NCBI GenBank assembly: GCA_964509195.1
Contig: CAZDWJ010000008.1
Location: 61,190 to 125,189, forward strand
DNA from: an uncultured Leptospira sp.
GTDB lineage: Bacteria; Spirochaetota; UBA4802; UB4802
Direction: 5' to 3'
DNA: 64,000 bases
The notes beneath the pieces are model-generated. The model had not been told where the DNA came from, searched no databases, and saw only the letters and a list, made by a program, of their open reading frames with translations. A program made the translations under genes and the position numbers. This document shows, piece after piece, positions 6,885 through 9,939 of the stretch (position 1 is the stretch's first letter; the number at the start of each line of letters is the position of its first letter).

Positions 6885-6981
6885 AGTATTCCCCTTATAG
6901 TAAATATATTTATTATTTTGATTTTATAACACTCTTGAATAAAAGTCAAAAGAATTTTTAGGTTAATGAGTGTATACAGGA

Positions 6982-7014
6982 ATATACCCCACCTTGTTTG
7001 GCAGTGGGGTATAT
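6982..7014 (-). terminator. hairpin downstream of the antiporter gene
   Basis: Perfect 11-bp stem ATATACCCCAC (6982..6992) / GTGGGGTATAT (7004..7014), 12 nt after the stop at 7026. The trailing U-tract on the minus strand is weak. Confidence 0.5.
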
Positions 7015-7025
7015 ACTATAATAAT

Positions 7026-8237
7026 TTAATGATTATTATTAACACCATTCAATCCATCTAATTGTGGAATTTCCTCATCAGCCATAGGTGCTTCAAGCAG
7101 GTGTTCTGGCAAAAAGAATGTGTTTGCGATAAGAGTAGGAACAACAGCACTGGTAATAACAGCTGCTATAAGGAAAGAATACTGTGCTTGATCAATTATA
7201 TTGTGAGTTAGTCCAAATAATGCTGCGATTGAACCAAATGTGAGCCCAGTTGACATAAGCAAGGTGTAGTACCAGCGCTCTTTTGTACTTTCTTTGAAAA
7301 TTCCTATTATTGGATAAAGCCCAAATATTTTTGTGATAACCTTTCCACCAAAAAGAATTATAAATGGTAAAGGTGCCAAAAAAATTGCCGGTAAACTTAC
7401 TAAAAAGCCAGCACGTAAGAAATAAATTGGTGTTAAAAATCCTATAGTCAATGTTCGTAATCGGCGCATGAAAAATTCATCTTTTGCAACACTTGAAGCA
7501 AGGACCATCCCTAATATATAGGCGGGAAGTACAGCCTCACTTCCTGACCATAGTGCTAATGCACCTAATGCAAATAACACAAACAAAATCCACTTGGTTC
7601 TGATAGCTGCGGTTCGGTGGCCATAGATTTTTGTTAGCCGCGCAGTTATTGCCGGCATTGCAAAGAAGGTAACTATCGACACTATTATAAAAATAATTGT
7701 TTTGTAGGTAAATGGAGAAAAGATGATGCCAAGTGCAATCACCGTCCCCAAATCATTGACAAAACAAGCTCCTAAGATCCCTTTACCGTACTTTGTTTTG
7801 TTAAATCCATATTCAATCATTACAGCATACACAACAGCCATTGATGTTGTTGACAGGGCTACACCAGCAAGCAAACTTGATTCAAAATTCCAGCCTAAAA
7901 GATAGTATGCAATTAATGCACTTCCAACAAAAGGTGACAGAAAGCCAATAAAGCCAACGACTGTTACTTCTTTGAATGTATCCCTGATAGTGTGGTAGTC
8001 AAGTTCAGCGCCCGCTAAAAACGTCAGCACCACAGCACCCGTGCTGGCAATAAATTTTATCCAGTCAGAATTTGCCTGCATAAAATCGGGATTAAAATAT
8101 TTTGCAAATAGTAAACCTGCTATCGCACCAACAGTTATTTCCATAAGTGCCATTGAAATTTTTAAACGGTTAGCCAATATAGTAGAAATTACAGCAAGGC
8201 CAAGCCATACTGATGCTACTACAAACATAGTAAGCAT
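7026..8237 (-). CDS. cation:proton antiporter (Na+/H+ exchanger, CPA superfamily)
   Basis: Polytopic hydrophobic ORF of about 400 aa with CPA-type layout. A GGAGGA SD lies 4 nt before the ATG at 8237. The ORF track extends it to 8249. It is preceded by a fluoride riboswitch. Confidence 0.8.
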   Translation of the reverse strand: MLTMFVVASVWLGLAVISTILANRLKISMALMEITVGAIAGLLFAKYFNPDFMQANSDWIKFIASTGAVVLTFLAGAELDYHTIRDTFKEVTVVGFIGFLSPFVGSALIAYYLLGWNFESSLLAGVALSTTSMAVVYAVMIEYGFNKTKYGKGILGACFVNDLGTVIALGIIFSPFTYKTIIFIIVSIVTFFAMPAITARLTKIYGHRTAAIRTKWILFVLFALGALALWSGSEAVLPAYILGMVLASSVAKDEFFMRRLRTLTIGFLTPIYFLRAGFLVSLPAIFLAPLPFIILFGGKVITKIFGLYPIIGIFKESTKERWYYTLLMSTGLTFGSIAALFGLTHNIIDQAQYSFLIAAVITSAVVPTLIANTFFLPEHLLEAPMADEEIPQLDGLNGVNNNH

Positions 8238-8276
8238 AACATCCTCCATACATAATTAGTAAAATTTTGGCGCAGG

Positions 8277-8352
8277 TAAAAATAAGAAACCTACTGCCAT
8301 GCAGTAGGAGCCATCAGCCGGAAGGCATTCAACGGGGGACCCCATCCCCAGT
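8277..8352 (-). promoter_or_regulatory. fluoride riboswitch (crcB RNA motif) with overlapping intrinsic terminator
   Basis: The minus-strand RNA is CUGGGGAUGGGGUCCCCCGUUGAAUGCCUUCCGGCUGAUGGCUCCUACUG. From memory, this aligns with the crcB-motif core, e.g. the Thermotoga aptamer GGGCGAUGAGGCCCGCCCAAACUGCCCUGAAAAGGGCUGAUGGCCUCUACUG. The P1 stem is GGGG/CCCC and the small hairpin is GCC-UUCC-GGC. The loop GGGGUC can pair with GGCUCC as the pseudoknot. The 3' CCUACUG is shared with the terminator stem CCUACUGC-AUG-GCAGUAGG, which is followed by UUUCUUAUUUUU. This is ON-switch logic. Confidence 0.8.
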
Positions 8353-8427
8353 TATAGTAGTGCAGCAACTGTTACAGATGGTAACAGTAAAAAGAATAGC
8401 ACTTTTGTCAATAGAATAAAAAATAAT

Positions 8428-9939
8428 TTATGTAGTGCTAGTTTTTTCTGGTATAAAGAAAAATGCCAGCAATACTACCCCGCAAAATGTCAGATAATAC
8501 CCTGCCCATACTGAAGCCTCCGGAAATACGGAAGTAATAAAAAGATAATCCTGATTAATTGCCCACAGTAGAAATAAAAATAGGAAAATTCCTGTAACAA
8601 GCTGCAGAATCTGGAAGATGGAATATTTTTTTTGAATGAGTTTGAATTCACGAATTTTTAATAGTAGTCCTGTTACTAAACGATAAACCTGTAATAGCAG
8701 TGTTATAAATGCAACATACAGTATAACCCATAATGCATATTCTGCATATATAATTTTACTCATCCCAATGGTATCAAACCCAATCCATTTTGACCAATCA
8801 TTAAGGATATACGCAAAGAATGGCCAGCTTCGTTGACTGTTGGTTACTAGTACAATACCGTCACCAGTTTCAGGTAGTGAATGAAAGTGTGTCATCCACC
8901 CAGTTCCCTGGCCGCCATGTGATACAGCTTTTTTATTGTTTTTTGAAAATTCAATAAAATGCCCAAATCCATACCAGGGAAACGCAAAACCATACAAGCC
9001 TGGTATTTTTATAGTAGGCTGATACATTTTGTGAATAAATTCATTGCTCATTATTTTTAAGCCGATGGTATTGTACTTTGTCGTACCCGCAGTCACAAAC
9101 AGTGCAATATCCTCAACAGTTGAAAATAACCCGCCAGCTCCTTTTTCCGGATATACATACTCGGGGATTGCTGTTCCATTAAGAGTATATCCTTTGGGGA
9201 ATGGGGTATAGTTGTTATTCCATTTATAGCTTGAATGTTTCATGCCTAAATTGTTTAAAACCTCTTTTTGCATAAAATCAGCAAAGGGCTGTTTTGTTAC
9301 TTCTTCTATAAGCAATTCAAGCAGATTAAATCCCGTATTGGAATATGAAAAAATTGAACCCGCTGGTGCTATCATAATTGCATCTTTATAAAGACTTTCT
9401 TTTAGTGTTGGTCGTGCTTCCTCTGGAGAATAACGTACTCCAATAGTACCAAGAGGCAGGCCTGCACTGTGGCTCAATAATTGTCGTATAGTTATTTTTT
9501 CAGGGTGGTATGCTGAAGGTGGAAATTCCCATGTTTTAAAATATTTTGCAACTGGTTCATCTAAATTTATTTTACCGTTATATGCTAATCTCATTACGCC
9601 CCATGTGGTTACTGATTTTGAAATTGATTCAACGCGGCATATTGTTCCTACTTTCATAGGGATTTTTTTTTCTTTGTCAGCATATCCGTATGCGTTTGAC
9701 CATATTATTTTTCCTTGCTTGATGATCGCAATATTCACTCCAGGAATCTTATATTTTCTCATTAGAAATTTCACCCGATGATCAAGGTGGTGAATGAAAT
9801 TTTTTTCAGTTGTATATGATGTTATATGGGGGGAAGTAATCAGATAAAAATTATTTAAAAATATATATACTGCAAGTAGTATTGAAAATGTTATTATCGA
9901 AAACAATGCTAGTGCTCTTTTTTTTATGTGATAGTTCAT
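8428..9939 (-). CDS. serine hydrolase (beta-lactamase/PBP4*-like family) with C-terminal membrane domain
   Basis: 503 aa. It has an N-terminal TM segment, an SxxK motif (VESISKSV), and several C-terminal hydrophobic helices. Confidence 0.75.
   Translation of the reverse strand: MNYHIKKRALALFSIITFSILLAVYIFLNNFYLITSPHITSYTTEKNFIHHLDHRVKFLMRKYKIPGVNIAIIKQGKIIWSNAYGYADKEKKIPMKVGTICRVESISKSVTTWGVMRLAYNGKINLDEPVAKYFKTWEFPPSAYHPEKITIRQLLSHSAGLPLGTIGVRYSPEEARPTLKESLYKDAIMIAPAGSIFSYSNTGFNLLELLIEEVTKQPFADFMQKEVLNNLGMKHSSYKWNNNYTPFPKGYTLNGTAIPEYVYPEKGAGGLFSTVEDIALFVTAGTTKYNTIGLKIMSNEFIHKMYQPTIKIPGLYGFAFPWYGFGHFIEFSKNNKKAVSHGGQGTGWMTHFHSLPETGDGIVLVTNSQRSWPFFAYILNDWSKWIGFDTIGMSKIIYAEYALWVILYVAFITLLLQVYRLVTGLLLKIREFKLIQKKYSIFQILQLVTGIFLFLFLLWAINQDYLFITSVFPEASVWAGYYLTFCGVVLLAFFFIPEKTSTT

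Follow-up and report, generated by a model that had tools for sequence, protein, structure and literature searches.

In this work we describe a fluoride riboswitch in the leader of a cation:proton antiporter (CPA) gene from an uncultured Leptospira sp. Both lie on the minus strand of contig CAZDWJ010000008.1, within a stretch of 64,000 nucleotides that was analysed as a whole and is called the window here; all positions are counted along it. We think it likely that aptamer and gene form a one-gene unit that is switched on by fluoride, and that the product is an electroneutral exchanger extruding the protons that hydrogen fluoride (HF) brings into the cell. A preliminary description of the window had pointed to this leader, and its claims are taken up below where the results bear on them.

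The aptamer was identified by comparing the whole window with Rfam 15 by cmscan, using the gathering score (GA) of each family as threshold. RF01734 (Fluoride, crcB motif) is the sole family above GA in the 64 kb, and matches at 8358..8298 on the minus strand with 43.8 bits against a GA of 34 (E 7.6e-9). The alignment is full-length, covering model positions 1-64 of 64, and a covariance model built here (R1) scores the same element, 8298..8358, at 58.4 bits. The preliminary description had read a crcB-motif aptamer in this leader and had proposed its score against GA as the check to make, a check that the match passes; its end of the element at 8352 has to be moved to 8358, the 5′ end of the aptamer.

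Each of the structural elements that had been named before, P1, a short hairpin, a conserved 3′ strand and a pseudoknot, was found on the minus strand. P1 pairs GGGG (8349-8346) with CCCC (8337-8334) around the loop AUGGGGUC, and the small hairpin P3 pairs GCC (8326-8324) with GGC (8319-8317) around the loop UUCC. The conserved 3′ strand reads GGCUGAUGGCUCCUAC (8319-8304). The pseudoknot joins GGGGUC (8343-8338) to GGCUCC (8312-8307) by six pairs including the wobbles G.U and U.G, its partners being the P1 loop and the 3′ tail, as RF01734 requires. All 13 pairs of P1, P3 and the pseudoknot are able to form in the window sequence (13/13). It had also been claimed that the pseudoknot partners covary. 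Changes are indeed present, but relative to the family consensus they are one-sided and leave wobbles (A-U to G.U and U-A to U.G); the U.G wobble is seen in just 3 of 86 distinct relatives. The aptamer ends 60 nucleotides 5′ of the ATG at 8237, in the sense-strand 5′ untranslated region (UTR) of an antiporter of the family PF00999. On its sequence and predicted pairing we regard the element as confirmed as a genuine fluoride-riboswitch aptamer.

Overlapping the aptamer is an intrinsic terminator (8278..8308, minus strand), identified by a terminator scan and by folding. Its 8-bp stem, 8308-8301 paired with 8297-8290, and its AUG loop read CCUACUGC-AUG-GCAGUAGG (8308-8290). A U-rich tract of 12 nucleotides, UUUCUUAUUUUU (8289-8278), lies 3′ of the stem, and the terminator scan gives UUUCUUAUUU as the tract directly 3′ of the hairpin. 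The isolated hairpin folds at -11.8 kcal/mol (z -3.8), a stability that 0/200 shuffles equal. These results bear out the earlier proposal that a terminator with a U-run shares the aptamer's 3′ strand. The 5′ arm of this terminator takes in the two final nucleotides of the pseudoknot (8308-8307) as well as the conserved UAC, 8308-8304 being common to both structures, so that the pseudoknot and nucleation of the terminator should be mutually exclusive. In the minimum free energy (MFE) structure of the 80-nt RNA of aptamer plus terminator, P1 and P3 coexist with the terminator. In L002-L004, the closest three relatives (91-93% protein identity), the aptamer and the terminator stem are identical, change being confined to the loop, and the rest of the leader differs. 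As the terminator shares the aptamer's 3′ strand, fluoride-dependent anti-termination is the expected logic, and the layout would be that of a classic fluoride-ON switch. A further conserved stretch past the U-tract, ACCUGCGCC (8267-8275, minus strand), is able to pair with the terminator 3′ arm; GC to AU changes in L003 preserve the pairing of this region.

In order to see how general the arrangement is, we scanned one genome per GTDB species for relatives and kept the best 80 of 397 stretches, with 61-93% identity; all locus counts given below refer to these 80. The nearest database relatives are annotated merely as cation:proton antiporter or KefB-type, and belong mostly to Spirochaetota metagenome-assembled genomes (MAGs). 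The bacterial hosts of the 80 loci include Spirochaetota and Leptospirales, Bacteroidota, Planctomycetota, Smithella and Syntrophus, Desulfobacterales, Acidobacteriota, Nitrospirales, Ignavibacteria, Hydrogenedentota, Omnitrophica and Peregrinibacteria, and Thermoplasmatota archaea are also among the hosts. In a sample of 17 sequences the mean column identity is 72%, which is unusually high across phyla for a polytopic transporter.

The aptamer travels with the gene. A plain regular expression found it in 27/80 loci, and a covariance model made from 29 aptamers found in this way raised the count to 75/80. In 69/80 loci it lies on the same strand at most 300 nucleotides upstream of the antiporter, and in 6/80 it lies 1-2 kb upstream with an intervening gene. 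When 11 low scorers were re-tested, the Rfam model confirmed 10 at GA, including both archaeal ones; the remaining one, L069, has an insertion in P1. The aptamer is absent from five loci (L033, L036, L056, L067 and L072), for which the Rfam model at GA agrees and inspection revealed no remnants. Two of these, from Desulfobacterales (L056:2770-3028 and L072:3740-4000), have repeats of the motifs GCCTGTAGG / TAGCC in front of the antiporter orthologue, which may be binding sites of a different regulator.

The related aptamers also show the pattern of change that is expected of a conserved structure. Across 87 of them, 97.8% of the pair cells hold standard pairs, two-sided changes occur at 7/13 pairs, and the pseudoknot is paired in every case (100%), including a G-C to A-U exchange in the archaea. 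None of 500 shuffles (0/500) reaches these pairing statistics and no slid register comes near them. The expression platforms differ by lineage: gaps of 58-170 nt between aptamer and gene mostly hold terminators, and with gaps of 12-21 nt (Bacteroidota, Smithella) the aptamer strand ACUCCU and the Shine-Dalgarno (SD) sequence AGGAGU are complementary. From these sequences, two mechanisms thus appear to keep the ON logic across lineages, an argument for selection on the fluoride-induced expression of the antiporter.

The antiporter gene occupies 7026..8237 on the minus strand and encodes 403 amino acids. The most likely start, judged by its context, is the ATG at 8237: the SD sequence GGAGGA (8242..8247, minus strand; L002-L004 all have GGAGG) and the N-terminus ML(T/D)MF.. 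are conserved in the three closest relatives, and a product of exactly these 403 aa is recorded in GCA_900096875.1. The alternative start at 8249 would give 407 aa, an exact product that is not on record, and we have dropped it in favour of 8237.

The assignment of the gene to a CPA-type exchanger has held up. PF00999 (Na_H_Exchanger) matches with 127.4 bits against a GA of 26.2, residues 18-373 aligning with profile positions 3-367 of 375. The best NCBIfam match is the CPA2 model TIGR00932, yet it stays below its cutoff (101.6 vs 238.3 bits), and both Kef models are far under theirs (KefC NF002924, 36.3 bits vs 752; KefB/KefC-type NF002973, 29.1 vs 804). The protein stops at residue 403, and the Pfam scan found neither an RCK/KTN domain nor any other second domain. 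NapA and KefC are its only sequence relatives in the PDB. An AlphaFold2 model (predicted local distance difference test, pLDDT, 72; predicted template modelling score, pTM, 0.72) was compared with known structures by Foldseek, which places NapA (4bwz) first with a TM-score of 0.70-0.73, followed by SLC9C1, NHA2, PaNhaP and KefC.

Residue-by-residue HMMER alignments locate the ion-binding site. In transmembrane helix 4 (TM4), T130-T131-S132-M133 correspond to A125-T126-S127-V128 of NapA and L124-S125-S126-T127 of KefC. N161-D162 aligns with NapA D156-D157 and KefC Q155-D156, and K303 with the TM10 lysine of KefC, K307. These alignments also ruled out a reading of TM4 as Kef-like 'LSTT', which would have implied K+ selectivity. 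In the terms of Masrati et al. the motif is TTSM...A---ND...K, in which the binding-site Asp of CPA motif position 7 is kept as D162. Electrogenic CPA2 proteins combine Asp at position 6 with Lys at position 8; here these are N161 and K303, so that only the Lys half is present. Asn161 is invariant in 17 clade members. CPA1 proteins are defined by Glu at position 5 and Arg at position 8, where this protein has Ala157 and Lys303, and the ND motif alone is not exclusive to them (PMC6181914).

Electroneutral exchange is expected of CPA2 proteins without Asp at position 6 (Masrati 2018, PMC6181914), and the same argument has been made for Q155 in the KefC structure paper (PMC11150392). The model and alignments together describe a CPA2-type scaffold with the 13-helix NapA/KefC fold and, as modelled, a single binding-site carboxylate, and we predict from the motif an electroneutral Na+ (or K+)/H+ exchanger. 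A wider family (representatives P0121-P0259, 30-57% identity to the window protein) always has Asn or Thr at motif position 6, never Asp. Eleven of its members lack Asp7 and read TN or TS instead, and in 5 of these 11 TM4 reads SETS. The combination of SETS with TN suggests that the single carboxylate has moved from TM5 to TM4, and the motifs are consistent with a single-carboxylate site throughout the family.

Fluoride exporters were sought near the antiporter with Pfam. In the window all open reading frames (ORFs) with at least three predicted membrane segments were taken, along with several that have two, including ORFs overlapped by longer ones, and none of those scanned matches CRCB (PF02537) or Voltage_CLC (PF00654). 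This agrees with the earlier statement on the lack of crcB and eriC-F in the window. The candidate membrane ORFs in the 4-kb flanks of the 80 relatives likewise yielded neither CrcB nor CLC, and a tblastn search of low sensitivity, with an approximate E. coli CrcB query, gave nothing in the window or the loci. The 64 kb are a small part of the genome, and this absence says nothing about the remainder; physical separation from exporter genes does not mean that the host genomes are without exporters.

From the identity of the aptamer, its overlap with the terminator, the fold and motif of the protein and the linkage of aptamer and gene across phyla, we infer how the unit would respond to fluoride, which ions it would exchange and in which direction, and what it would do for the cell. 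Transcription would start some 20-30 nt upstream of the aptamer. When fluoride is lacking, the aptamer 3′ strand (..CUCCUAC..) would be free to become the 5′ arm of the 8-bp terminator, and the polymerase would stop at the U-tract, so leaving the ribosome-binding site, about 40 nt further on, untranscribed. Fluoride would bind in a Mg2+-F- cluster like that of the fluoride riboswitches whose structures are solved, and the pseudoknot GGGGUC/GGCUCC would then lock the 3′ strand, so that the terminator could not nucleate and the antiporter mRNA would be completed. The antiporter would expel the protons carried in by HF, with a cation entering down its gradient. This extrusion would maintain cytoplasmic pH and the proton-motive force, while a separate exporter encoded elsewhere would remove F- itself.

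Among the host lineages are many anaerobes with presumably Na+-based energetics, in which Na+ could enter in exchange for H+ leaving the cell. We rank H+ extrusion first because of these presumed energetics and because pH homeostasis is the published rationale for riboswitch-linked antiporters, given in a review (PMC11139923).

Several points weigh against this explanation. Ligand binding, termination and transport are all predictions made from sequence. Folded as a whole, the 185-nt leader shows no significant gain in stability over shuffles (z -1.87). A sigma-70 consensus scan reported no promoter 5′ of the aptamer. We have nonetheless marked a putative -35 box, TTGACA (8406..8411, minus strand; TTGACA or TTAAAA in L002-L004), and after a 16-nt spacer a putative -10 box, TACTGT (8384..8389, minus strand), whose counterparts in L002-L004, TAGTAT or AAGTAT, lie at about the same place. 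The -10 box is weak, which is why the scan missed the pair; conservation of the -35 box supports this as a candidate promoter of the riboswitch-antiporter unit. With so weak a consensus promoter, read-through from the upstream gene is possible. The TM4 residues T130-T131-S132-M133 resemble NapA ATSV, yet this resemblance does not settle Na+ versus K+. A crcB or CLC-F elsewhere in the genome is presumed. Finally, an electroneutral exchanger runs either way, and H+ extrusion is therefore one choice among possibilities.

The reverse direction is a serious rival, even if we think it unlikely. It keeps the same switch and exchanger and lets H+ in for K+ or Na+, in the manner of an endogenous nigericin. 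Fluoride accumulation follows the transmembrane pH difference (ΔpH). The ΔpH that drives this weak-acid accumulation would collapse into membrane potential (Δψ), which would aid electrogenic exit of F- through a channel; by analogy with Kef acting against electrophiles, the collapse would lessen the trapping of F- as a weak acid. A predicted electroneutral single-carboxylate site that dissipates ΔpH and spares Δψ would suit this role (PMC6181914), as would the relation in fold and sequence to KefC, which protects cells through cytoplasmic acidification (PMC10224563, PMC11150392), and the module is without an adjacent exporter in 80/80 loci. That said, K+/H+ exchange does harm if unregulated; Kef is for this reason gated by its RCK domain, and this domain is absent from the 403-aa antiporter. 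The published rationale, moreover, runs the other way (PMC11139923).

There is also a small chance that the aptamer works mainly by translation, or at both levels, with its 3′ strand pairing with the ribosome-binding site. Relatives with a gap of 12-21 nt have an ACUCCU complementary to their SD sequence. In the MFE structure of the read-through leader (8228-8312, minus strand) of the window, the aptamer strand GGCUCCU pairs with the SD region, AUGGAGGAU, in a fold that is no better than shuffles (z -0.95, not significant). About 60 nt separate the SD sequence of the window from the aptamer strand; the terminator, by contrast, is a strong local structure with a 12-nt U-rich tract conserved in relatives. 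This favours anti-termination here.

Could the clade instead be a dedicated fluoride transporter, carrying F- or HF along with a cation or proton, for example, and so a third class of exporter? NhaA-fold proteins outside the CPA family, e.g. bile-acid/Na+ symporters, carry anions, and ASBT has been noted as structurally similar (PMC6181914). The tight conservation across phyla and across the divide between bacteria and archaea would fit such a role (61-93% identity; 72% mean column identity, n=17), as would a near-obligate aptamer linkage (75/80 loci) and the lack of crcB or CLC among the scanned membrane ORFs of the window and the 4-kb flanks of the 80 relatives. We nevertheless hold this to be improbable. 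The canonical cation-binding D162, the NapA-like T131/S132 and the TM10 Lys are all retained, no anion-site signature is evident, and exporter genes may sit elsewhere in these genomes despite their physical separation.

A chance match, or a decayed aptamer, without regulatory function is extremely improbable for this element, given its E of 7.6e-9 over the whole window and all families, conserved nucleotides and pairs that are all intact, conservation together with the terminator in relatives whose flanking leader has diverged, and recurrence at the same place in 69/80 orthologous loci.

The surroundings of the unit can be described briefly. Between the putative promoter and the aptamer, and overlapping the -10 box, an 8-bp leader hairpin, ACUGUUAC/GUAACAGU (8368..8388, minus strand), folds at -8.1 kcal/mol (z -2.9); it is not conserved in L002-L004. 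The upstream gene (8428-9939, minus strand) encodes a 503-aa protein of beta-lactamase fold (PF00144, AmpH/PBP4B-like) with several predicted membrane segments; its stop codon lies about 70 nt from the aptamer, and read-through into the riboswitch is conceivable. Directly 3′ of the antiporter stop is a strong 17-pair hairpin (6975..7020, minus strand; -21.7 kcal/mol, z -4.05) that lacks a clear U-tract and is the probable 3′ boundary of the one-gene unit. The gene that comes next (6884-5553) is preceded by a promoter-like site of its own, at 6949-6921. The locus had been called a clean single-gene test case. It is probably a single-gene unit, but the host is an uncultured Spirochaetota MAG, and the test is practical via heterologous expression only.

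Other genes accompany the module in the relatives. In 24/80 loci it is adjoined by a gene for a dynamin-like GTPase of about 550-600 aa (PF00350 Dynamin_N, 82-106 bits; located by tblastn), which in at least 9 loci is directly preceded by its own RF01734-type aptamer. Dynamin-like genes with an aptamer lie at L005:2042-3921, L014:1905-3808, L016:5295-7191, L031:1208-2946, L035:1163-2903, L046:1516-3268, L055:584-2327 and L066:559-2392, and also in L006 and L011; in L005, L006 and L011 the gene stands between aptamer and antiporter. Truncated dynamin remnants occupy the same place in L024, L027, L074 and L075. The window has no dynamin-like gene, and our literature search found no paper joining fluoride, riboswitch and dynamin.

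A few loci carry further genes. In L057 a second aptamer (6721-6659; 33.8 bits with a model built here) precedes an enolase gene (PF00113/PF03952; the whole at 6721-5317, minus strand), which is a riboswitch-controlled extra copy beside the antiporter module. Enolase is a classic fluoride target, and its occurrence after an aptamer accords with the literature. A 443-aa protein with MutS_V/MutS_III domains follows a fluoride aptamer in L070 (967-2577), and a homologue 53% identical to it lies beside the antiporter in L030 (3140-4444); both agree with the mutS association noted in 2010. In L062 (2502-3190) and L074 (2679-3272) the space between aptamer and antiporter holds short ORFs of 161 and 169 aa that match nothing in Pfam, the one in L074 having a weak tblastn match to a dynamin fragment.

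A bolder proposal can be made, which we put forward tentatively and think rather doubtful. The antiporter clade may have spread by horizontal transfer as an arm dedicated to fluoride defence. It would be independent of CrcB and CLC-F, has its own aptamer nearly always and is paired in many genomes with the separately riboswitch-controlled dynamin-like GTPase, so that the whole would be a hitherto unrecognised module for membrane and pH protection. In the strongest form of this proposal the antiporter itself would handle fluoride or HF.

Both the fluoride riboswitches and the exporters they control are well understood; antiporters are the second most frequent class of target. The clade described here could decide between proton extrusion, collapse of ΔpH or something new in fluoride tolerance. 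It offers handles for experiment: a defined protein, the point mutants N161D and D162N, and in Syntrophus buswellii DM-2 (NZ_CP175563.1, L066) a cultured host with the same module.

How does the locus compare with known systems? Its aptamer resembles the crcB motif (RF01734) in P1, P3 and the pseudoknot, in the GAUGG, CUGAUG and CUCCUAC blocks, in its place in the 5′ UTR and in the terminator over its 3′ end. It differs by the two wobble pairs of the pseudoknot and by a J1/3 of UUGAAU where the consensus is uAACC, neither of which is categorical. In earlier work on crcB RNAs a terminator overlapping the 3′ end was described in many of them, with the prediction that the ligand raises expression (Weinberg 2010, PMC2864571).

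The association with antiporters, which the preliminary description had called reported but unexplained, is documented in the literature (PMC2864571, PMC11139923). Weinberg 2010 lists crcB RNAs upstream of K+ transport genes (PMC2864571), and a 2024 review ranks Na+/H+ antiporters as the next-most common riboswitch-associated class after exporters (PMC11139923, citing Baker 2012). The window antiporter is like these known cases in being a cation/proton antiporter under fluoride-riboswitch control whose function in fluoride stress is unexplained; our literature search found no published functional test of any riboswitch-associated antiporter. In C. difficile, CD0656-7 form a riboswitch-controlled operon of a CLC and an NhaP-type antiporter (PMC11477304). 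In contrast, the window antiporter stands alone, with no CLC or CrcB in operon or window, and is an ND+K protein on a CPA2 scaffold rather than of the annotated NhaP (CPA1) type.

Among transporters of known structure, NapA of Thermus thermophilus (4bwz, 5bz2/3), an electrogenic CPA2 Na+/H+ antiporter, is the best match in both sequence and fold (E 2e-11). T126/S127 of its TM4 and Asp157 of its TM5 are conserved as T131/S132 and D162. However, overall identity is 21%, and NapA D156 is replaced by Asn161, so that the window protein lacks the D-K salt bridge required for a second proton; NapA R331/E333 align with G331/T333, as in E. coli NhaA. The electroneutral K+/H+ exchanger KefC of E. coli (8bxg) shares the fold, the uncharged residue before the Asp (Q155-D156 vs N161-D162) and the TM10 Lys (K307 vs K303). 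It differs in its C-terminal RCK/KTN domain and glutathione gating, both missing from the window antiporter, and in its K+-type TM4, LSST vs TTSM.

In summary, the association of fluoride riboswitches with antiporters has been known since 2010-2012, and this locus adds a further member to it, not a new principle. What the comparison adds is the definition of a clade, its motif and the strength of its linkage, and these sharpen the question. The target is one discrete and highly conserved clade with a single-carboxylate (ND + K) site, which from spirochaetes to archaea nearly always has its own aptamer and in the 80 loci never sits beside an exporter.

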